In this document: in pieces, positions 1 to 8,228 of the stretch
Layout: each line of letters opens with the position of its first letter
Position numbering within the stretch: position 1 is the stretch's first letter
IMG/VR virus record: IMGVR_UViG_2737471869_000029
Coordinates: 1-8,228 of that record
Direction: 5' to 3' (one strand)
DNA length: 8,228 bases
Origin: a virus
Taxonomy: Duplodnaviria; Heunggongvirae; Uroviricota; Caudoviricetes
The notes under the pieces: model-generated
The model's input: the letters and a program-made list of their open reading frames with translations, nothing else
The model's database searches: none
What the model was told of the DNA's origin: nothing
Made by a program: the position numbers and the translations under genes

Positions 1-52
1 GGACAGGCCCACCCCACCAGGAGGACCCGCAAAAAAGGCGGCTGCTGCCGCC
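1..52. repeat. Copy A of a conserved terminator-associated element (GGACAGGCCCACC-N3-CCAGGAG-N7-AAAAAAG-hairpin)
   Basis: Positions 1-37 align with 2530-2566: 13/13, then 3 mismatches, 7/7, 4/7, 7/7. Each copy is followed by a different GC-rich hairpin. Confidence 0.55.
31..52 (-). terminator. Rho-independent terminator after the capsid gene
   Basis: Minus-strand read: GGCGGC-AGCA-GCCGCC hairpin (37-52) followed by TTTTTT (31-36), 7 nt downstream of the stop at 59-61. Confidence 0.6.
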
Positions 53-58
53 TTGTTC

Positions 59-1939
59 TCATGAAGAAATCGCTCTGACCATTCCGCGATAATCCAGAGC
101 AGCAACGCCAGCATCAATGCGGACCTTCCAGGCCACACCGTCAACAATAAAGCCCTCCTGCTGCTCAAGGTAAGGCTCGTCATTACCGTCAAGATAAGCC
201 ACCTCAATTGTGTCCGTTCCCTGTGCTGAAAGCATGTACCATTGCTTATCACTGACTTCATCAAGGCGGGGATCGACAATAATATCCAGTTGTTTGTGGT
301 ACGGGTTATATGAACCACTGTTTGTATCGGCACCAAAAGGCGTGGTTGAGTTAACCATTTGCAACGCTCTGTCTTCCAGAGCCGCTGGAACAAGAAGGAA
401 TTTTGGCACAATATTCAGCACCTCACCGTTTTCATCCCTCTGTGTGCGCATTGCACGGCGTGCAATGCCAAGCCCTGTAGTGCTGACTCCGTTATCAATA
501 TCATTTCCGTGTTTTTTGCTGAACAGCGGTATACCGTCAGAAAGCTTTGTGTTTCCTGTCAGCACCAGATGAACCAGATTACCCACCGTTCTGGCGGCTG
601 CTCGCCCCATTGCCTGCGGGATAACGGTTAACTGATTCAGATCATCGTTAATAATCGCCTGTCGGGTAATGCTGAAAATATTACCGTAGGTGGCCAGCGC
701 GATTGGTTCACCACGGTCACTGGTGGTTATGTATTTATATTCCGCACCTTCCGGCACTTTGTTTAATGTCGAGAAGCCATTCAGACCAACACGACGCGCT
801 TCATGGAAGTTTGACAATGAACCTTTTTTCGTCCACTGGCGAAATGTCTCGCCGCTTTGCTCCCATCCGGCAAGCACTGATTTTTCAGCGCCACCAGCAA
901 GGATATAAGTAAAATCGCTGCTGCTGTGGTTGAATGCCGCGTTTACTATCTGCGAGCGTGTGCTGTAGCTGCCTGTGCTTATGCCGCGATGGGTTAATGA
1001 TGCCTGTGCCATATCGAAAAGGCTCATCATGGCGTAAGGGTTTCCGCGTTCTGCCTGCTCGTGCCCAAGACGCGCATTAAGCCCCTGACGCATTGCATCA
1101 CCCGTTATGTTGCCGTTATCCGTATATGCGTAGTAAAGATTTGCAGGTGTGGTTTTGTTTGTCGGTGTCGATTCTTTACCCATAGTGAGTAAAAGACGTT
1201 CGCGCGCATCCTCAACGCTACACCCTGAATCAGCAAGACAACTTATAGCCAGGTCGTTATATCTTCCGTTGAACGTACCGAACAACTCACGGATCCCGTT
1301 GAGTCGTTCCTGTTCTCCGCTGGTCGTTTTCTGGCTGATCATGTTCTTAATATTTTCCGGCATATTTGAAAAATCTCCGATTCGTTTTGATTCAATTCGG
1401 GCCATTGCTGTAATCGCGGGTATAACCTCGTCTGCGAAGCCGTTAGCCTTACACTCATTGCCATCCATCCAGGTTTCCGCCTCCATCATGGCGGTGATTT
1501 CCTGTTTGCTCCTGCCCGTTCTTCCGGCGTAGGTTTCAGCCATCGTGTCGCCCAGCTTGTCCATCAGGTCAGCAAAGCGGCGAACGTCGCCCGACACTCC
1601 GGCAGTAACACCACGGGGGGCATGTATCATCATCATTGCGTTTTCAGGCATAACGATGTGATCGCCACACATGGCAATAAACGAGGCCATAGAAGCCGCC
1701 ATGCCTTCAATGTGTACAATTTTCTTTGCCGGATGATTTTTCAGGGCGTTATAGATAGCCAGCCCTTCAAAGATGTCGCCACCAGGTGAATGGATGCGAA
1801 GATGGATTTCAGACGCATTACCACACGCGTTGATCTCGTCAGTAAGTGCCGATGCTTTTACACCGTACCCGCCGATCTCGTCATAAATGCGCACATAGAC
1901 AACATCTGCCATAGCCTTAATGGAAAACCATGTTTTCAT
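59..1939 (-). CDS. Prohead serine protease (ClpP-like) fused to HK97-fold major capsid protein, 626 aa
   Basis: N-terminal ~190 aa carries ClpP/S14-like motifs (HSPGGD, GMAASMAS with the nucleophile Ser, MMMIHAP with the His). The C-terminal ~400 aa has a phage major-capsid-like tail (FLLVPAALEDRAL ... GFIVDGVAWKVRIDAGVAALDYRGMVR). AGGAG sits 7 nt upstream of the ATG at 1939, and the start overlaps the upstream ORF stop (ATGA). A hairpin with T-tract follows the stop. Confidence 0.7.
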   Translation of the reverse strand: MKTWFSIKAMADVVYVRIYDEIGGYGVKASALTDEINACGNASEIHLRIHSPGGDIFEGLAIYNALKNHPAKKIVHIEGMAASMASFIAMCGDHIVMPENAMMMIHAPRGVTAGVSGDVRRFADLMDKLGDTMAETYAGRTGRSKQEITAMMEAETWMDGNECKANGFADEVIPAITAMARIESKRIGDFSNMPENIKNMISQKTTSGEQERLNGIRELFGTFNGRYNDLAISCLADSGCSVEDARERLLLTMGKESTPTNKTTPANLYYAYTDNGNITGDAMRQGLNARLGHEQAERGNPYAMMSLFDMAQASLTHRGISTGSYSTRSQIVNAAFNHSSSDFTYILAGGAEKSVLAGWEQSGETFRQWTKKGSLSNFHEARRVGLNGFSTLNKVPEGAEYKYITTSDRGEPIALATYGNIFSITRQAIINDDLNQLTVIPQAMGRAAARTVGNLVHLVLTGNTKLSDGIPLFSKKHGNDIDNGVSTTGLGIARRAMRTQRDENGEVLNIVPKFLLVPAALEDRALQMVNSTTPFGADTNSGSYNPYHKQLDIIVDPRLDEVSDKQWYMLSAQGTDTIEVAYLDGNDEPYLEQQEGFIVDGVAWKVRIDAGVAALDYRGMVRAISS

Positions 1940-2130
1940 AGCCAGGCTCCTAACGTTGCCCTGTACCAGTATTCAACCGCGCTGCGTGTGATTTGTCCTT
2001 TCGTGGGTACCGGCATACCCGGGTGATTGTCTTTGATGAACTGCTGATAGCGTTCGATCTTCTCCATAGTTCCGGCGTCTATGTGTACCGTGGCACTTTT
2101 ATCCGGCTTTCTGGTGTTGTTCTCTGGCAT
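1936..2130 (-). CDS. Hypothetical small protein, 64 aa from the ATG at 2130 (track gives 75 aa from 2163)
   Basis: GGAGG lies 8 nt upstream of the ATG at 2128-2130; the ATGATG at 2163 has no SD. Its stop overlaps the capsid start (ATGA), suggesting translational coupling. No recognisable motif. Confidence 0.5.
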   Translation of the reverse strand: MPENNTRKPDKSATVHIDAGTMEKIERYQQFIKDNHPGMPVPTKGQITRSAVEYWYRATLGAWL

Positions 2131-2212
2131 AAATCCGCCTCCGTTTTGATTAACGGGCATCATTATTGATCGATAAAAGTAATAGATAAATCATTTTCTA
2201 CCTGAAAATTAG

Positions 2213-2218
2213 ATTATA
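2213..2218 (-). promoter_or_regulatory. Candidate -10 hexamer (TATAAT on minus strand) for the small-ORF/capsid operon
   Basis: Perfect TATAAT on the minus strand about 80 nt upstream of the ORF start. No good -35 at 17 bp, which would fit an activator-dependent promoter. Confidence 0.25.
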
Positions 2219-2250
2219 TTTTTCTGATTATTCTCAGAGAGGCAAATCCA

Positions 2251-2280
2251 TTGACGCATTTTTGCTATTGAAGCAATATT
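2251..2280 (+). promoter_or_regulatory. Candidate sigma70 promoter on plus strand (TTGACG-N18-AATATT)
   Basis: TTGACG at 2251-2256 and AATATT at 2275-2280. It points rightward into a region with no plus-strand CDS but a strong plus-strand terminator 45-80 nt downstream. Confidence 0.3.
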
Positions 2281-2286
2281 AAGACT

Positions 2287-2361
2287 CGTCATCCTGGCGA
2301 TAAAAACTCCTTTGTCGTGTAAAAGCGCCTCCGGTAACAGCAATCGAGGGCGCTTTTTTTT
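2287..2361 (+). ncRNA. Candidate small RNA (about 75 nt) between the plus-strand promoter and terminator
   Basis: Bounded by the promoter candidate at 2251-2280 and the intrinsic terminator at 2325-2361. No ATG-initiated ORF inside. Purely structural inference. Confidence 0.2.
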
Positions 2362-2375
2362 GCGCCTGTTTTTTT
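2325..2375 (+). terminator. Strong plus-strand intrinsic terminator (tandem hairpins with T8 and T7 tracts)
   Basis: GCGCC(2325-2329) pairs with GGCGC(2349-2353), followed by T8 (2354-2361). A second hairpin GGCGC(2349-2353)/GCGCC(2362-2366) is followed by TGTTTTTTT. On the minus strand the T-tract is only TTTT. Confidence 0.55.
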
Positions 2376-2529
2376 GTAAATGTTTTCGGGAACGCTCCAG
2401 TGATGAACAAAAAACAACCTGATTCGACACTAAAAATTTTTATTCCTCAATATATCAATAACTTATAGTGGTGGTGATGGTGCCATAAAAATCAAAAAAT
2501 GCGCCTTTTTCCGCGCCCGCCCGCCCCGT

Positions 2530-2581
2530 GGACAGGCCCACCAAGCCAGGAGTACCTACAAAAAAGCCGGATTGCTCCGGC
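2530..2581. repeat. Copy B of the conserved terminator-associated element
   Basis: GGACAGGCCCACC (2530-2542), CCAGGAG (2546-2552), AAAAAAG (2560-2566), then hairpin GCCGGA-TTGC-TCCGGC (2566-2581). Preceded by an unusual CCGCGCCCGCCCGCCCC tract. Confidence 0.55.
2560..2581 (-). terminator. Rho-independent terminator after the 90-aa ORF
   Basis: Minus-strand read: GCCGGA-GCAA-TCCGGC hairpin followed by TTTTTT, 20 nt downstream of the ORF stop at 2601. Confidence 0.6.
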
Positions 2582-2600
2582 TGTGTGCTCACTTCTTCGG

Positions 2601-2873
2601 TTATTCTCCAGCGCTTTTAACGTTGATGGTTGTTACCTCTTCCGCTTCGGCAATCTCCCGCTCTGTCAGCGTGGCAAAGTTTGCCGCCGTCGTGGTCATG
2701 AATGCGCTTATCAGTTCGGGATGTGCTTTCGCATATCCTTCCCCCGCATGGCGGTCTATCGTTCTGATTGCCACCTTTAAAGCGTGCTCTGTCATGTCTA
2801 ACGCGCGATATTTCGGTTCTGTTCTGTCTCTGCGTTTTTTGAGTGATTTATTAAATTTCCCTGAAGTGTGCAT
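2601..2873 (-). CDS. Hypothetical protein, 90 aa, immediately downstream of the origin
   Basis: ATG at 2871-2873 with GAGGGGG about 11 nt upstream; own terminator downstream. Ala-rich helical-looking sequence with no motif I can name. Confidence 0.5.
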   Translation of the reverse strand: MHTSGKFNKSLKKRRDRTEPKYRALDMTEHALKVAIRTIDRHAGEGYAKAHPELISAFMTTTAANFATLTEREIAEAEEVTTINVKSAGE

Positions 2874-2919
2874 ATTTATTTTTACCCCCTCGTTTAAAAA
2901 GTTTTGAGTTGTGCCTCCC

Positions 2920-3150
2920 CTTGTCTACCTTATCTACCTTAGTGGCCATCATGCCAGTAATGGCGCGGCTTTCAGCGGGGTAGAGTGCTTTTATCCACTA
3001 TCTACCCCGTGTCTACCTCCCTGTCTGATTCAGGTAAAATCAGGTAGAGAGGGTAGATAGTGGGTAGACAGTAAAAAAAGGCTATCTACATAACTTAATG
3101 CACTGAATTAAATGTATTTTTCTTTACTCAGGTAGACAGGGTAGACAGCA
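2920..3150. repeat. Iteron-type replication origin: at least 10 copies of GGTAGA(C/G/T)(A) in both orientations around an AT-rich core
   Basis: TCTACC orientation at 2924-2929, 2933-2938, 3001-3006, 3012-3017. GGTAGA orientation at 3043-3048, 3052-3057, 3063-3068, and tandem GGTAGACAG at 3131-3139 and 3140-3148. AT-rich segment at 3072-3128. Sits directly 3' of the primase-helicase stop (3162). Confidence 0.65.
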
Positions 3151-3161
3151 ATTACAAAAAA

Positions 3162-4910
3162 TTATAAAAACGCGTCGCACTCGTCTGTTGTTATTGCGTT
3201 AGTCTGCGTTACTCCCTTAACTTTCCGCGTAATATATTCATGTCCGTAAACTTTCGCGGCTGGCTTCATAGCCTTGCCAAAGTCATTTACGTTTAGCGGT
3301 TTGCTCCTGCCTGCGTACGCCATAAACGCCAGATAGACGCGGTAAAGGCTGTTCCTGGTCGTGTACTTCACTGAATCACCACCGCCACCCATCATCAGGC
3401 CGCGCGCTTCCTCCAGAAAATTCAGGAACTGGCAAAACTCAATAACCGGATCCGTCTGTTGCTTTATTGCCAGTGCTTCATCACCGTCACGCTGTTCCAG
3501 TAGTAAAGCCCGTGCCTTCTCAGGGTCGGTAAAGTTCGCCAGCAATCGGCGGATAATGACAGGGATTTCAGCCGCGATCTTTTCCGGTAGCTCCCTGTCT
3601 TTTTCGGCCTCACTGACGATATTGTCGAAACGGAAAATTACGCGACGACGTGACACACCTCCGGCCCGTTCGGTGAATATCATCGGGTTATTGTTGGTAG
3701 CCAGCACCACCGCCCTGATTACCGCCGTAAAACGCTTCTCATATTTCGGGTTTATTTCCACGGGGTCGCCGCCCGTGATTTTCTTGATGCCCGTTCCTTC
3801 GCCTGTATATTTCGGCTGGTCAGCCAGGACGATAAGACGACTCCCGACAACCTGCGCACGTCCACCAGCATCATCAAGCGATGTCATCTCCGCGCTCACC
3901 GTGTTCTGTTTCCCTGCCAGAAGGCTGGCTATGTGCGTGAATGTACTTTTACCGCTCCCGCCGTCTCCGGTGGCCTCAATAAACATCTGCCAGTCGTACC
4001 GGTTCGCCATAATCATGTACAGCGCGGCACATATACGCATCATCTTGCGCGGGTCTTTTCCGGCTGCGTGCTCAAGCCATTTATGAAAGTTTGGCGCGTT
4101 ATCGCGGATGTTCTCCCCAGGTGCTGGTGGCGTGTACTCAATGCCGTTGTGCGTGGTGATCCAGTTCTCCGGCGTGTGCGGGGAAAATTCCCCCGTTTTC
4201 AGGTCAAGCGCACCATTGGCGAACGGCAACAAATCGCCGGACGGCTCGCCCATTGGTTCGGCAATAACTTTTAACGCTTCCACGGCGTTATTGATTACGC
4301 GCTTGCTGAAAGTGGCCCTGTGCTCTGAATAGATCGCCACCATTTCGCGGCTAAGTTCCATTGTGCTGACCGGACACCATACCCCGCCGCGCCATACGTG
4401 AACGATTTCACTTTCCGGATGCACACAAACGCCATCAAATCGACCAGCAAGCATCTGTGCGCGCTCACTGTCTGCCATTTGTGCCAATTGCGTATTTTTC
4501 TGCTCCGGCATGGTAAGCCCTGCGGCAATATTTTCACGCTCAGCATTCAGATAGCGCCGCCAGTTTTCACACTTCTGGACGTGCATTCCTTCGGGGTAAA
4601 AATTTGCGTCCTGAATATCTGCCGCCGCCAGCTTCTGACCAATCTTCTTGGTCTCCACTAAATCCAGTTCTCCGGCCTGGTACAGCCTTACGCGCTTTTT
4701 CCCATCCGGAACAATTTTCAGCGCATCAAGTTCGGCAAGCTGATTTGGCCCAAGCCACACAGGCGGCACATTATCGCCGGATGCGGGGCCATCCTGCTCC
4801 TGCCATTGTTCCGCGTGTGACCAGGCATCACTACCCGCAAAGATAATTACCTCTGTGTCTTTGTGTTTTATTCCGCGTGGCTGTTTTTTTACGTTCGGTG
4901 CCAGTTTCAT
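3162..4910 (-). CDS. Replication primase / SF3 helicase (P4 alpha-like, D5 family; PICI pri-rep type), 582 aa
   Basis: Walker A GDGGSGKST and a downstream hydrophobic-acidic stretch (LIVLAD) typical of D5-like helicases; large N-terminal domain. Start ATG overlaps the upstream ORF stop (ATGA). Iterons lie immediately downstream. Confidence 0.88.
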   Translation of the reverse strand: MKLAPNVKKQPRGIKHKDTEVIIFAGSDAWSHAEQWQEQDGPASGDNVPPVWLGPNQLAELDALKIVPDGKKRVRLYQAGELDLVETKKIGQKLAAADIQDANFYPEGMHVQKCENWRRYLNAERENIAAGLTMPEQKNTQLAQMADSERAQMLAGRFDGVCVHPESEIVHVWRGGVWCPVSTMELSREMVAIYSEHRATFSKRVINNAVEALKVIAEPMGEPSGDLLPFANGALDLKTGEFSPHTPENWITTHNGIEYTPPAPGENIRDNAPNFHKWLEHAAGKDPRKMMRICAALYMIMANRYDWQMFIEATGDGGSGKSTFTHIASLLAGKQNTVSAEMTSLDDAGGRAQVVGSRLIVLADQPKYTGEGTGIKKITGGDPVEINPKYEKRFTAVIRAVVLATNNNPMIFTERAGGVSRRRVIFRFDNIVSEAEKDRELPEKIAAEIPVIIRRLLANFTDPEKARALLLEQRDGDEALAIKQQTDPVIEFCQFLNFLEEARGLMMGGGGDSVKYTTRNSLYRVYLAFMAYAGRSKPLNVNDFGKAMKPAAKVYGHEYITRKVKGVTQTNAITTDECDAFL

Positions 4911-5206
4911 TTTTTACCCCTGAATACGTTAAGCATCTTTTTTATTTCCTGAATATTGGCGCGTGCTTTCTCCCTGCTGGTGGGCACGTTATGCGGCGCG
5001 GTCTGTACAAGAGAAAAATCACGCCGGAACTGATAAACAGGCATCACGCAATCATATTCGTAACCCTCACGGCGGTAAGTTACGCACCGTCCCGCCACGC
5101 CCTTAATCATTACCGTGCCGCCGTACTGGTCGCGGTAAATATCACCGCGCGTAAATTTAGGGTGAGTGTTGCCACTGGCAGTTAAGCCAGAATATTTAAG
5201 TTTCAT
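4907..5206 (-). CDS. Hypothetical protein, 99 aa, coupled to the primase-helicase
   Basis: ATG at 5204-5206 with GGAG about 11 nt upstream; stop overlaps the primase start. No recognisable motif. Confidence 0.55.
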   Translation of the reverse strand: MKLKYSGLTASGNTHPKFTRGDIYRDQYGGTVMIKGVAGRCVTYRREGYEYDCVMPVYQFRRDFSLVQTAPHNVPTSREKARANIQEIKKMLNVFRGKK

Positions 5207-5211
5207 TATTT

Positions 5212-5442
5212 TTATTCTCCGGTGTGGGGCACGTTATTATTTTCGTGAATTGCCATTGCCTTATCCAGTTCATCAATAACAGGCGATAGTAATGTCTGAA
5301 TGGCTGCAAACATTAATACACCTGATTCCTCACCACCTTCCGGCACTTCAATTAATTTAATTAACAACGCATTCATTTCGCGCGCTTTAATTAATGCGTT
5401 TTCAGAGTGGATTAATACTTCAAAAGGGATTTTATGCATCAC
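5212..5442 (-). CDS. Hypothetical small protein, 75-76 aa (GTG at 5442 or ATG at 5439)
   Basis: GGGAG lies 7 nt upstream of the GTG; the start overlaps the stop of the upstream 66-aa ORF (GTGATG / TGA). Helical, acidic sequence. Confidence 0.5.
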   Translation of the reverse strand: MMHKIPFEVLIHSENALIKAREMNALLIKLIEVPEGGEESGVLMFAAIQTLLSPVIDELDKAMAIHENNNVPHTGE

Positions 5443-5639
5443 AAAATTTCTCCCTGGCGAATACGGGCGGCGAATACCATCACGCAGCCATCAGGAGATT
5501 GCTGGCGTGCTTCCTGTTCGCTGGTGGCCTCAATGGTAATCACGCGCGGTTGTGCAGTGCTCAGGGCGATAAAACGCCAGATGTATTTATTCAGGTTGTG
5601 CGAGTCCCGCCCTTGCGGGTGTGTAGTATGATTTCTCAT
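5439..5639 (-). CDS. Hypothetical small protein, 66 aa, first gene of the leftward replication operon
   Basis: ATG at 5637-5639 with GAGGT 5 nt upstream. It is the C-terminal part of the 303-aa track ORF, which I reject as a whole. Confidence 0.45.
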   Translation of the reverse strand: MRNHTTHPQGRDSHNLNKYIWRFIALSTAQPRVITIEATSEQEARQQSPDGCVMVFAARIRQGEIL

Positions 5640-5735
5640 AGCTACCTCGATACTGTTGCTATCGTTGGTGGTTAGAAGCCCGGTTAGTGTTAGCGCACTG
5701 CCGGGTTTCGTCGTTTCTGCACCTTGCATCAACAA

Positions 5736-5810
5736 GGTGTTGAACACCAATTTAAACCTAGGTGTTAAACACGTCAAGTGTTGAACACTTGTTTTTTTTC
5801 CTGCATACTG
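5736..5810. promoter_or_regulatory. Genetic switch: three palindromic operators GTGTTnAACAC over back-to-back divergent promoters
   Basis: Operators at 5737-5747, 5762-5772 and 5778-5788. Leftward promoter candidate (minus strand) TTGACG 5772-5777, N17, TAAATT 5749-5754. Rightward candidate TTGAAC 5781-5786, N17, CATACT 5804-5809. Confidence 0.6.
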
Positions 5811-5838
5811 CATTTGTTTTTTGTGAGGGGGACACAAC

Positions 5839-6018
5839 ATGGCGACAAAAGCAGTAAACGCAAAATCACAAACAGTTGCGGCAAGGGTTCCGCATGAAGT
5901 TATGAACAATGTTGAGGCGGTAAAAATGCCTGGTGAAAGTACAGGGCAGTTTGTAACAGCAGCATTAAAGCGAGAAGTTGAGTACCGCCAGCGCCGCAAG
6001 GCCAAAGAATCAGAATAA
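5839..6018 (+). CDS. Small ribbon-helix-helix-like DNA-binding protein, 59 aa (not in the ORF track)
   Basis: ATG at 5839 with GAGGGGG 6 nt upstream. Sequence MATKAVNAKSQTVAARVPHEVMNNVEAVKMPGESTGQFVTAALKREVEYRQRRKAKESE fits an RHH (Arc/CopG-like) beta-helix-GxS/T-helix pattern. Transcribed divergently from the replication operon. Confidence 0.55.
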   Translation: MATKAVNAKSQTVAARVPHEVMNNVEAVKMPGESTGQFVTAALKREVEYRQRRKAKESE

Positions 6019-6075
6019 TAACTATCATCGCCGTGGTGTGAGGAACTCCGGCGCATTGCTTTACAGGTACACAGA

Positions 6076-6249
6076 ATGACCAACAAAGAATCAACCAATA
6101 CACCATCACCGGCACGGAAAAGACGGCGCAGAAAGATAGAGCATGAATCAGAAAGATTCGCGCCATGTGCTTTTGCCCTTGAGCAATTCCTTAAAGAGTA
6201 CAGGGAAACGCGCTCATTGCAGGTATGGCAACGAACTGAACCAGACTGA
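6076..6249 (+). CDS. Hypothetical small basic protein, 57 aa (not in the ORF track)
   Basis: ATG at 6076 with a weak AGGT SD 7 nt upstream; same frame as the RHH ORF. Arg/Lys-rich N-terminus (ARKRRRRK). A plus-strand terminator follows. Confidence 0.3.
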   Translation: MTNKESTNTPSPARKRRRRKIEHESERFAPCAFALEQFLKEYRETRSLQVWQRTEPD

Positions 6250-6313
6250 TTGCATTGCCCACCAGCCTGATAGCGGCTATCATCCCCGTGCTTATGTTTA
6301 GTGCTTTCCCATT

Positions 6314-6344
6314 GGCGACCGCCCCCGGTCGCCTTTGTTTTATG
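6314..6344 (+). terminator. Plus-strand intrinsic terminator ending the rightward small operon
   Basis: Perfect 8-bp stem GGCGACCG / CGGTCGCC (6314-6321, 6326-6333) with a 4-nt loop, then TTTGTTTTATG. No T-tract on the minus strand. Confidence 0.6.
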
Positions 6345-6360
6345 TGTCATATGCTCCCCT

Positions 6361-6570
6361 TTACACTGCCTTACCTGAATTAATGCGATCCCGGCTTTTA
6401 ACCCATTCCATAACCTCGGACAGCAGCCACCCTACAGAACGACCGCCCAGATTAAGACGTGACGGAAAGCGCCCTTTTTTCTCCAGTTCGTAACGTGTAG
6501 TGCGGCACACTCCAGTTAACTTACGACATTCATCCTCACGGATTACGCGATCTTCATTTATTTCACGCAT
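6361..6570 (-). CDS. alpA: AlpA-family (excisionase-like) transcriptional regulator, 69 aa from the ATG at 6570 (track gives 98 aa from a GTG at 6657)
   Basis: Conserved AlpA core CRKLTGVCRTTRYELEKKGRFPSRLNLGGRSVGWLLSEVMEWV. The 87 bp between 6571 and 6657 is very AT-rich, promoter-like, and has no SD before the GTG, so I prefer the ATG start. Confidence 0.82.
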   Translation of the reverse strand: MREINEDRVIREDECRKLTGVCRTTRYELEKKGRFPSRLNLGGRSVGWLLSEVMEWVKSRDRINSGKAV

Positions 6571-6693
6571 ACAAAAACCTACATAAAAATTACGTATATA
6601 AACTTTTCTCTTAGCTGTAGATATATGAGATCGGATATTACTTAGATTCTTTTTCACCTCTTAAATTAAAAACACAACCATGCTAAAGGCTTT

Positions 6694-6720
6694 GTTCGCT
6701 AAGGTTCGTAGAAGCTCGTT
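6694..6720. promoter_or_regulatory. Three 10-bp-phased direct repeats G(T/C)TCG(C/T)T upstream of alpA
   Basis: GTTCGCT at 6694, GTTCGTA at 6704, GCTCGTT at 6714: exact 10-bp periodicity. Confidence 0.3.
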
Positions 6721-6911
6721 AGTGTTTAAAATCGTGTCACGAGTTTTTAAGCGACGCAACAAAAAATGTCGTCATTTGGCATGACACCTGAATCACCTCA
6801 TTAAAAACAAATAGATAAACCATCAGGTGTTGGAACAATCAAGAAACAGAGAATAAGAACTCAGAAGAAGACATTTCAAATTTTTTCGATAGTTGACACA
6901 TATAAAGAGAA

Positions 6912-6983
6912 GATATTTGCAGATATTCCCCGATATTCTAAGATCTATTCACGGCTGTAATCTCTTAAAGAAAAAACAGCCGT
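6912..6983. promoter_or_regulatory. 10-bp-phased GATATT repeats plus an 8-bp inverted repeat just downstream of the int stop
   Basis: GATATT at 6912-6917, 6922-6927 and 6932-6937, with a degenerate GATCTATT at 6942-6949. Inverted repeat ACGGCTGT (6951-6958) / ACAGCCGT (6976-6983) with a 17-nt A-rich loop. A perfect TTGACA sits at 6893-6898. Confidence 0.35.
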
Positions 6984-6989
6984 AATTTG

Positions 6990-8228
6990 TCAAGAATTTT
7001 GGGGGTAAATTCGCGGGGTCATAACAACGATTTTTTCATCATTGTTCTGGAGAAGCTCGAGACGGTCTACCCATAGATTAAGAGCATCACGTTTTGCATC
7101 AAGGTAGCGGGAGTGGTTATAGACTCGTTGCATCCCTGGCATCTGGTGGGCTGTAAGCTGCTCGACAATATGCGGATCCACGCCTAAATCGTTCAGCATG
7201 GTTGTAAATGTGTGCCGGATATCGTGTAACGTCCAAGGGGCTTGATTAATTCGTCTGTGCGCTGTTCTTCCGTACTCTGCTACCGAAGATTGTCCTTTCA
7301 GTTCACCAAGCAATAAGCCCGTGTGTCTGTTCTGCTCCACCAGTTGCGTGACGAACGGCAAAATGCTTTCCGGTATTGGCCTGAATATGGCGACCTTCGT
7401 TTTGCTGTGCTCCTTCGGTACTGTCCAGAGCATTTCTTTAAAATCCCACTCCTGCACCTCAGAGCGCCTTAGCTCAGTGGTACGGCATCCAAAAACAATC
7501 AGGAGGCGAATTAGGGCGCTGTAGTATGGCGGGAATATTTTGTCATCCAGGGCGCGGAGTAATTCCCCAAGCTCCTTGTTTGTTAGTACGCGCTCGCTCA
7601 CTTCTGCTTTTTTTCCCACATCACCGACAACCATATCATCAAGAACGTTGCTGATTGCGTATCGTCGTTTTCGGCAGTACTTAAGCGCCTGTTTGCATAC
7701 CTGTAGCAAAAATCCGGCAGATACTGGGCTTCGCTTTGCCATCTGGTCAAAACATGCCAACCAGTGCCGTAGCTCGCATTTTTCCAACGGCAAAGCGCCA
7801 ATCTGGCTGATTATGTGTTTATTGATCCGGCTTTTCAGTGATTCGTAGTCAGTGCGCTTTTCCTTTGCATACGATTCAAGCCAGTAAGTGAGCGCTTCCT
7901 TAACTGTCACGGGGGCTAACGCATCCTGTACAGCACGATTAAGCTCATAGCGCGGATTTTTCCCCTCAGCCAGCCAGGCGCGACACTGTGCTGCTTTTTC
8001 CCTGGCTGCTTTCAGGCTCAGATCGGGATAATTGCCCAGTCTCAGACGTTCCGGTGATACCTGCCTACCAGTTCCGGCCCTGTAAGTGAAATACCAGGTT
8101 AACAGGCCGCTGGTGGAATGTCTTACGCTAAGATTGCCACCGTCATTAAAAAAGGCGTTTTTTGTGGTTGGTGATCCGCTTAATTTTCGTAAAAGAGTGT
8201 CGCTAAGTCTATGAATTGCGCTGCTCAT
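6990..8228 (-). CDS. int: Tyrosine recombinase / integrase, P4-type, 412 aa
   Basis: P4-int-like N-terminal arm-binding region (FNDGGNLSVRHSTSGLLTWYFTYR), catalytic motifs LHDIRHTFTT (His-x-x-Arg) and VYNHSRY (Tyr nucleophile), conserved Arg in GCRTTELRR. ATG is at 8226-8228, the window edge. Confidence 0.93.
   Translation of the reverse strand: MSSAIHRLSDTLLRKLSGSPTTKNAFFNDGGNLSVRHSTSGLLTWYFTYRAGTGRQVSPERLRLGNYPDLSLKAAREKAAQCRAWLAEGKNPRYELNRAVQDALAPVTVKEALTYWLESYAKEKRTDYESLKSRINKHIISQIGALPLEKCELRHWLACFDQMAKRSPVSAGFLLQVCKQALKYCRKRRYAISNVLDDMVVGDVGKKAEVSERVLTNKELGELLRALDDKIFPPYYSALIRLLIVFGCRTTELRRSEVQEWDFKEMLWTVPKEHSKTKVAIFRPIPESILPFVTQLVEQNRHTGLLLGELKGQSSVAEYGRTAHRRINQAPWTLHDIRHTFTTMLNDLGVDPHIVEQLTAHQMPGMQRVYNHSRYLDAKRDALNLWVDRLELLQNNDEKIVVMTPRIYPQNS

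Follow-up and report, generated by a model that had tools for sequence, protein, structure and literature searches.

The window analysed here is an 8,228-nucleotide stretch of viral DNA (IMG/VR record IMGVR_UViG_2737471869_000029), in which prediction of open reading frames (ORFs) together with Pfam, PHROG and NCBIfam places all long genes on the minus strand. In the direction of transcription, a tyrosine integrase gene (int) is followed by alpA, icd-like, orf76, a DUF4222 gene, a primase gene, an array of iterons, orf90, a terminator, a first cos site (cos1), orf75 and a capsid fusion gene. A first-pass annotation of the window had recognized a satellite with the backbone of a phage-inducible chromosomal island (PICI), and int, alpA, the replication operon with its origin and the capsid-side gene are indeed all present in the order given there. 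The gene at the far end, described at that time as packaging-related, exists as well, but it encodes a fusion of a ClpP-like protease, a scaffold and a major capsid protein (MCP) and is flanked by cos sites. With a probability of about 0.9, the window represents most of an ordinary integrated Gram-negative PICI of the EcCI family, located in the spacer between cspD/yljB and clpS of the Escherichia coli chromosome. The element adds a new mosaic to a family and an integration site that were known before, and it does not represent a new or hybrid lineage.

The window is matched exactly, on the opposite strand, by positions 3712–11939 of the E. coli contig L014 (GCA_011802445.1), and six further contigs differ from it by at most three changes. 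The borders of the element were derived from an alignment of both junctions with the uninterrupted cspD-yljB-clpS spacer of strain K-12. On L014 the whole element comprises 10,355 bp (3528–13900), of which the window covers 79%. Each border is marked by an 18-bp attachment (att) core (L014 3528–3545 and 13883–13900), which occurs in a single copy at the empty site of K-12. On the plus strand of the window the core reads ATGATA[G/A]ATAACTATCAT, corresponding to ATGATAGTTAT[C/T]TATCAT in the orientation of Table S1 of PMC6092414, and the two cores of the element differ by one mismatch. The core is itself an inverted repeat (ATGATAG ... CTATCAT; also at positions 512–529 of contig L010) and includes bases of the yljB stop codon; this gene of 24 codons is left intact by integration. 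As had been noted in the first-pass annotation, the window ends at the int start codon, the ATG forming its last three bases, and the int-side core lies 166 bp past this ATG, just outside the window as expected. The tRNA gene that had been considered as the target was not found: the real integration target is an intergenic palindrome, and ARAGORN detected no tRNA gene in the window.

At the capsid-side end, about 1.9 kb of the element are missing from the window, which hold the remainder of a second cos site (cos2), two small ORFs and a regulator of the PerC family. The element is flanked by chromosomal genes, macB-cspD-yljB on one side and clpS-clpA on the other, and no prophage genes contiguous with the element were found in these flanks. 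The inspection of both flanks, which had been proposed as a check for an ordinary prophage, has accordingly yielded both att cores and chromosomal neighbours and no full prophage. Terminase, portal, tail and lysis genes are absent from the element; structural, lysis and defence genes were not found in the part beyond the window, and PADLOC detected no defence genes.

The exact Int protein is indexed in 5148 blocks of a public-assembly collection and adjoins cspD in all six places listed, and identical sequences of both the int and the capsid proteins occur on many E. coli contigs. Matches to DNA of the window occur in 1883 of the 5426 complete E. coli genomes, with coverage of the window reaching at least 80% in just 12 of them, which points to heavy shuffling of modules. 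Contig L015 (3100–12421) has the capsid-side half (orf76 through the capsid gene) with 99.6% identity over 5.5 kb, combined with a different integrase, the yejM site and a different set of regulators including a Phage_ASH-family protein. The presence of this half behind another integrase indicates exchange of modules between island types and recent mobility.

Kinship with the Gram-negative islands

Two reference Gram-negative PICIs listed in Table S1 of Fillol-Salom et al. 2018 (PMC6092414), EcCIIHE3034 and EcCI18098, are situated at cspD-clpS with the core ATGATAGTTAT. They share the att site with the element described here and, with 10.5 and 10.8 kb compared to 10.36 kb, are of similar size. 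The sequences of EcCIIHE3034 and of EcCICFT073 were retrieved by the coordinates of the same table, and their proteins were compared with those of the window. Identity to EcCIIHE3034 amounts to 99.8% for Int, 98.8% for the primase, 98% for YlcI and for Icd-like, 95.7% for AlpA, 91% for Orf57, 81% for the DUF4222 protein, 68% for Orf76 and 67% for Orf90. The corresponding values for EcCICFT073 are 77% (Int), 90.6% (primase), 59% (YlcI), 97% (Icd-like), 57% (AlpA), 91% (Orf57), 83% (DUF4222; C1493), 36% (Orf76) and 67% (Orf90). Orf75, which accompanies the ClpP-MCP module, is absent from both islands, and L015 has a copy with 100% identity.

One gene order is found in all three elements, including the two leftward genes and the ylcI/icd-like pair. 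EcCIIHE3034 moreover has the same operators and the same small RNA (sRNA) as the window element. It differs in carrying SSB, a lambda-E-type capsid protein, a head-decoration protein and a small terminase of the Nu1 type, whereas the window element has orf75 and the ClpP-MCP fusion and no small terminase (TerS). In EcCICFT073 the succession of int, alpA, orf57, ylcI, icd-like, small ORFs, rgdR, primase, origin, an orf90-like gene and the capsid region is as in the window, and two cos sites, orf93 and PerC are likewise present. However, its att site is ycfD-phoQ, its YlcI/operator specificity is a different one (GTGGGCCACAC), and it combines a lambda-E capsid with a decoration protein and with RppA, which retargets the helper TerS, while the window element is devoid of Rpp.

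A comparison of gene content with P4-like satellites, PICIs and capsid-forming PICIs (cf-PICIs), as recommended in the first-pass annotation, agrees with a Gram-negative PICI. Measured against the description of PICIs by Fillol-Salom et al. 2018, int is located at the end of the element and at a specific att site not used by prophages, an AlpA-type regulator lies directly downstream of int, and the origin behind the primase has two sets of iterons with an AT-rich stretch between them. With 10.36 kb the element is within the small size range of about 8–15 kb, and it has no lysis, tail or full morphogenesis genes, the capsid fusion being the sole structural gene. A helper-matched packaging signal is present in the form of two cos copies of the Stx-type lambdoid kind. 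The same description demands unidirectional rightward transcription; here a leftward gene pair with its own terminator and an antisense RNA are found instead. EcCICFT073 and EcCIIHE3034 deviate in the same way, and this trait of the definition itself appears to rest on an old annotation, the single ORF c1487.

Manual comparison of the annotation with the SatelliteFinder component list (de Sousa et al. 2023) gives four of five PICI core functions, namely integrase, regulator, primase-replicase and capsid morphogenesis. The fifth, terS, is absent, a combination which corresponds to 'Type B' of these authors. In the same study the integrase and the core component most distant from it were taken as the limits of an element, which resembles the way the window is cut. 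PICIs with a CLP_protease late gene are mentioned in PMC10111431. No named reference PICI carrying the ClpP-MCP module was identified; EcCI11128 was considered as such and dismissed, having a different capsid and TerS.

The features of the window are compiled in Table 1. Gene callers take the ATG at 6570 as start of alpA. Homologues of icd-like are found in 118 and of orf57 in 71 of 119 related contigs (see below), and orf57 is annotated on the same strand in CFT073. The stem of the terminator behind orf57 is followed by TTTGTTTTAT on the plus strand only, and the terminator is convergent with alpA. In close relatives, an SSB gene lies between orf90 and cos1 (15614–16060 of contig L003), the place of which is taken by about 21 bp in the window (2594–2614). 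The DUF4222 protein displays the motif RGD at residues 20–22. The same motif position and a length of 99 aa define RgdR, a regulator of type III secretion of the locus of enterocyte effacement and of motility (PMC3378721).

Table 1. Position, strand and supporting evidence of the features in the window
Feature	Position	Strand	Evidence or remark
Tyrosine integrase (int), 412 aa	6990..8228	-	Pfam Phage_integrase, Arm-DNA-bind_3; phrog_1
alpA, 69 aa, PICI master activator/excisionase-type helix-turn-helix protein	6361..6570	-	Pfam Phage_AlpA 2.1e-16
Intrinsic terminator of the leftward ylcI-orf57 unit	6314..6333	+	Stem GGCGACCGCCCCCGGTCGCC, then TTTGTTTTAT
orf57, small basic protein, second gene of the leftward unit	6076..6249	+	phrog_21027
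ylcI, YlcI/YnfO-family protein, 59 aa, candidate Arc-like ribbon-helix-helix repressor	5839..6018	+	NCBIfam NF041551 59.7 bits
Promoter of the icd-like/replication operon with three candidate operators	5737..5788	-	Promoter scan, sequence
Predicted cis-antisense sRNA, ~77 nt	5639..5716	+	Two stem-loops, U-rich tail
icd-like, 66 aa, first gene of the rightward operon	5439..5639	-	NCBIfam phage_ICD_like 70.5 bits
orf76	5212..5442	-	phrog_2196; variable between PICIs
RgdR homologue (DUF4222), 99 aa	4907..5206	-	Pfam DUF4222 2e-23
Primase/replicase, 582 aa	3162..4910	-	D5_N, DUF5906, Pox_D5, TIGR01613 (primase_Cterm, P4 family)
Iteron replication origin	2924..3145		Ten TCTACC copies
orf90	2601..2873	-	phrog_1231
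Intrinsic terminator closing the replication operon	2565..2582	-	Stem AGCCGGAGCAATCCGGCT, then TTTTTGTAGG
cos1, copy of lambdoid Stx-type cosN region	2472..2563	-	84–85% over 93 bp to phage spacer
orf75	1936..2163	-	phrog_4934 1.8e-51
ClpP-like prohead protease/scaffold/HK97-fold major capsid fusion, 626 aa	59..1939	-	NCBIfam scaf_prot_MCP1 862 bits
Terminator hairpin and cosQ-side edge of cos2	1..52	-	Base 1 just before cosN

The control region ahead of the replication operon

The interval between ylcI and icd-like measures 200 bp and holds the operon promoter, a sigma-70-like sequence on the minus strand (TTGACG-17-TAAATT, 5777–5749) with the −35 element at 5777–5772 and the −10 element at 5754–5749. 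Three 11-bp palindromes that bracket this promoter represent candidate operators: O1 (GTGTTCAACAC, 5788–5778), O2 (GTGTTTAACAC, 5772–5762) and O3 (GTGTTCAACAC, 5747–5737). Homologous regions were collected by means of an 18-nt leader motif, which gave 119 IMG/VR contigs in addition to E. coli loci. Across PICIs the −35 element is nearly invariant, and the GTG-N5-CAC palindromes change together with the divergently encoded protein, with at least 15 pairings of palindrome and protein. The operator GTGGGCCACAC is found with the CFT073-type protein, GTGTAAGACAC, GTGGCTGACAC and TGTGCGCACA are found with other proteins, and GGTAATTACC or GTGTACAC accompany short proteins of a second type. In a scan for the leader motif in one genome per species, ten of 11 matches were chance-like, and only that in Edwardsiella hoshinae is a true homologue.

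Proteins of the second type match the Arc repressor (1b28, E 0.0044) as well as other ribbon-helix-helix proteins. Alignment of the YlcI-type family profile with these Arc-like proteins at the same position gave a probability of 92% in hhalign (E 6e-7). The fold of YlcI is assigned only by way of the Arc-like proteins at the equivalent position in other PICIs; sequence searches of the PDB with YlcI alone and with the family profile returned nothing meaningful. Co-variation of YlcI and the palindromes is the pattern expected of an immunity repressor and its operators, which makes YlcI a candidate for such a function.

On the opposite strand of the leader, the predicted sRNA is antisense to the 5′ untranslated region of icd-like and covers both its Shine-Dalgarno sequence and its start codon. 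It has two stem-loops and would terminate with a GC-rich hairpin and a U-rich tail. Homologues are present in contigs L021 and L022 and in about 119 IMG/VR contigs, and in CFT073 the corresponding positions are about 1380775–1380852 of NC_004431.1. The RNA of the window folds with −37.2 kcal/mol (z −5.3), a stability that none of 200 shuffled sequences reached. In all 80 distinct variants the plus strand is more stable than the minus strand (mean −37.1 vs −22.2 kcal/mol), and consensus folding gave −29.2 for the plus and −8.8 for the minus strand. Among 69 distinct sequences 97.5% of cells are paired, compared to 81.6% for the same structure on the minus strand. Four pairs display compensatory double changes, and 295 cells are G-U pairs, which are mismatches on the opposite strand. 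A −10 element for the sRNA, TATGAT, is located at 5627–5632. In 78 of 80 variants an extended −10 element, TGnTAT(G/A/T)AT, lies inside codons 2–7 of icd-like, at a position from which the RNA would begin opposite the icd-like start codon, and the promoter reads TGGTATGAT in 71 of 80.

The sole Rfam match of the leader RNA is SymR (RF01809), which is matched over its full length with 32.9 bits at a gathering score of 61. Like the island RNA, SymR forms two hairpins and is encoded on the strand opposite the 5′ end of the gene it targets. Membership in this family was nevertheless rejected, as the score is below threshold and the target is icd-like and not symE; the similarity is one of shape only. 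A further parallel exists to the immI region of phage P1 (c4 RNA-icd-ant), where an Icd-family gene likewise heads the operon and its ribosome-binding site is the apparent antisense target. However, c4 RNA of P1 is processed from the same transcript, whereas the island RNA is cis-encoded on the opposite strand and has no C4 match in Rfam. Homologues of ant and symE are not present in the window.

On the minus strand, a 303-aa ORF (5439–6350) runs antisense through ylcI and orf57 and then across the promoter, the operators and the leader, and it was rejected as a gene. The length of its counterpart varies between elements (191, 303, 348 and 428 aa), and in contig L017 a 1-bp change in an intergenic A-run breaks the long ORF, while ylcI and icd-like are untouched. 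The 303-aa ORF is thus almost certainly spurious. It is called as a gene in many assemblies, which obscures the leftward genes as well as the promoter and the RNA. In the original annotation of CFT073, the region is given as one 428-aa 'icd-like' ORF, c1487.

Taken as a whole, the region raises the possibility that E. coli PICIs including EcCICFT073 carry an unrecognised immunity-type switch ahead of the replication operon, composed of a hypervariable Arc-like repressor and a conserved antisense RNA of ~77 nt. This proposal is tentative, its chances being somewhat short of even. If it is correct, the switch would have been concealed by early annotations, in which a single long rightward ORF was drawn through the region (c1487 with 428 aa, 303 aa in the window). 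In open-access full text, no description of a YlcI-type repressor or of an antisense RNA in PICIs was found.

Origin, packaging signals and the capsid fusion

The hexamer TCTACC occurs 12 times in the window compared to 1.97 expected copies, a number reached by none of 200 shuffled sequences. Ten of the copies are confined to 222 bp directly after the primase stop, and the arrangement of the two iteron sets is that described for PICI origins (PMC6092414). By its sequence, the element is a self-contained replicon.

The only phage DNA matching the window is a 93-bp stretch of 84–85% identity, which in VT1-Sakai and Stx2 phages is located between Rz and the gene of the small terminase, the position of cos. 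Within cos1 a cosN-like run, GGGCGGGCGGGC, is located at about 2526–2515, and the cosB side is diverged. The segment contains CACGGGGCGGGCGGGCGCGG, which presumably resembles the cosN region of lambda. The second copy, cos2, lies just downstream of the capsid gene (L014 11906–12107) and is 85% identical to the phage cos over 203 bp, including the cosB side, which in the phages adjoins the terminase gene. The window begins within cos2, its base 1 lying just before the cosN-like run of this copy. The two copies are about 2.5 kb apart, the internal one retaining the cosN region only and the outer one the cosB side in addition. A duplicate cos pair likewise occurs in contig L001 (family D1), and related cos sequences are found in 681 of 5426 complete E. 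coli genomes. In a search for helpers by means of cos2 in complete E. coli genomes, the best match was another PICI and not a prophage.

EcCICFT073 has two functional cos sites, and RppA retargets the helper TerS to the diverged cosB. In the present element no gene for TerS or Rpp was found. Packaging would most likely proceed by direct mimicry of the helper cos via cos2, because the element has no Rpp or TerS gene and cos2 retains a phage-like cosB side. From the kind of cos site and of head gene, the helpers are inferred to be lambdoid phages with a ClpP-MCP head and a matching cos type.

The capsid fusion, named 'ClpP-like prohead protease/major capsid protein fusion protein' in NCBIfam, is composed of a CLP_protease domain (Pfam; residues 41–173) and a Phage_capsid_4 domain (residues 330–623). 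Over its full length the protein is 49–51% identical to a protein of CP-1639, VT1-Sakai, several Stx2 phages, mEp460 and cdtI. In Stx2 phage yecE, cos is followed by terS, terL, one small gene, portal, fusion, and head-completion and tail genes, which indicates that the fusion is the only shell gene of that phage. The island gene is full length, and an alignment reveals that the ClpP Ser and His motifs (GMAASMAS, MIHAP) are kept. About 35 residues of linker or scaffold between the protease and the capsid domain, around residue 208, are missing in comparison to the phage protein. The stop codon of orf75 overlaps the start of the capsid gene. The fusion probably co-assembles with the helper protein or replaces it on the helper portal.

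Proposed life cycle and alternative readings

For EcCICFT073, AlpA has been shown to be an activator (PMC6092414). On the model of this island, the element would remain dormant in the chromosome as long as no helper prophage is induced. On induction, the helper would switch on alpA, and AlpA would drive expression of the island, followed by excision and replication, whereupon the helper terminase would cut at the island cos sites and fill helper-made heads. The replication operon is probably silenced at two levels. At one of them, the divergently encoded Arc-like protein would occupy the palindromes covering the −35 element, the spacer and the start site of the operon promoter, and at the other the cis-antisense RNA would mask the ribosome-binding site of icd-like, the first gene. 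As to alpA, a terminator on its own strand is absent, and read-through would oppose the leftward unit.

Several points weigh against this picture. The founding description of 2018 (PMC6092414) has Gram-negative PICIs as transcribed unidirectionally and without a known global repressor, and both the repressor and the RNA layer rest on comparative sequence only. Among the 80 variants, the window copy of the sRNA promoter (5624–5632, TAGTATGAT) is the only one without the TG of the extended −10 element, and because of this missing TG the window allele may make less of the sRNA. Excision, induction, replication and transfer of the element are taken over from a relative, and the nature of the helper is deduced only from similarity of the cos (85%) and of the capsid protein (51%). 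In EcCICFT073, moreover, the capsid and decoration genes are dispensable for transfer and interference, so that the fusion may have no role in mobilisation.

As far as its architecture is concerned, the element is of little import. It adds one more mosaic to a family on record since 2018, occupies a site that was catalogued as well, and is found in hundreds of E. coli genome sequences; its assignment removes the false lead of a hybrid lineage. The findings on the control region, by comparison, concern all members of the family, the model island EcCICFT073 among them. If the switch of repressor and RNA is real, it would answer what keeps Gram-negative PICIs silent and would explain the mutual independence of co-resident islands. 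The recurrence in this family of one gene for protease, scaffold and capsid, flanked by a pair of helper-type cos sites and usually not accompanied by TerS or Rpp, suggests a packaging and capsid strategy unlike the Rpp mechanism of EcCICFT073.

The first-pass annotation had seen in the window a P4-like switch on a PICI backbone and had considered a hybrid or new satellite lineage. The divergent arrangement on which this rested, with small ORFs ahead of the replication gene, does exist, as two plus-strand genes face a minus-strand promoter. Resemblance to P4 further extends to size, an integrase, an AlpA/Vis-type protein, an alpha-type primase with iterons and packaging by helper cos. The primase matches TIGR01613 ('primase, P4 family'), and a Phage_ASH-family gene occurs in the related element of L015. 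However, when every protein of the window was compared with the whole P4 genome by tblastn, only distant homologues were matched, with identities of 24% for Int, 43% for AlpA (Vis/ORF88) and 40% for the primase (alpha, over residues 141–578). P4 has the Sid/Delta/Psu module for capsid size and antitermination, epsilon, immunity by the CI (C4) RNA and a plasmid state, none of which the window element has. Homologues of Sid, Delta, Psu, epsilon and the cI region were found in the window neither by tblastn nor with Pfam and PHROG, so that the core of P4-like satellites (Psu, Delta, Sid, epsilon/Ash) is missing along with C4-family RNA immunity and its a1b1-type targets. In P4 itself Rfam detects C4 (74.9 bits), isrK (60.8 bits) and c4-a1b1 (44.1 bits), whereas none of the three was found in the whole window at E<=1 or in the section 5400–6400 at E<=10, and a P4-type RNA switch was rejected on these grounds. 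The complete control region is shared with EcCIIHE3034 and, gene for gene, with EcCICFT073 and is therefore part of the PICI layout; the att site and its core are those catalogued for EcCIIHE3034 and EcCI18098, and most proteins from Int through the primase are nearly identical to those of EcCIIHE3034. A hybrid origin is hence extremely improbable and, at the level of homology, already refuted. The impression of P4 is a historical one; an earlier description of OI-51, a related island of O157, had it as 'mainly P4 phage remnants' (PMC3378721).

In keeping with the first description of OI-51/CP-933C, the element might also be regarded as a decayed, immobile remnant of a prophage or of P4 that is kept for its regulators RgdR and PerC. 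Both act on virulence genes of the host, and the window copy is without the SSB gene of its close relatives. Decay is hard to reconcile, however, with intact int, alpA, primase, iterons and two cos sites, with att cores that differ by one mismatch and with copies in seven other assemblies that have at most three changes relative to the window; the capsid-side half behind a different integrase points to recent exchange and movement, and the close relative EcCICFT073 has been mobilised experimentally. This reading is very improbable, if not to the degree of a P4 hybrid. A better, though still unlikely, case can be made for a minimal capsid-forming satellite, placed between PICIs and cf-PICIs, whose own fusion would build island-specific and possibly smaller heads on the helper portal. 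As the fusion is the only shell gene of helper-type phages, one island gene could supply protease, scaffold and shell. The island copy is intact, with just 51% identity to the phage copy and the shortened linker, and the module recurs in 17 of the 119 related contigs; of the 15 of at least 9 kb, 13 have no match to the tested TerS and Rpp proteins. Moreover, small capsids are driven by a capsid homologue in SaPIbov5 and are found with PmCI172. Like the window element, cf-PICIs such as EcCIEDL933 have int, alpA, a primase and their own major capsid protein and prohead protease. However, they additionally encode portal, head-tail adaptor and connector, the large terminase subunit TerL, TerS and HNH, and the helper supplies tails only. 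In the window and the rest of the element these genes are all absent, capsid and protease being present alone and in fused form. Against an island-made head there also stands the dispensable capsid gene of EcCICFT073.

Between cos1 and orf75, the plus strand harbors a further site (2251–2375) with a promoter-like sequence, TTGACG-18-AATATT, followed about 90 nt on by a plus-strand terminator, GGGCGC-T8-GCGCC and a T-run. A second small transcript may arise from here; the fold of the possible RNA at 2284–2378 is weak (z −1.85).

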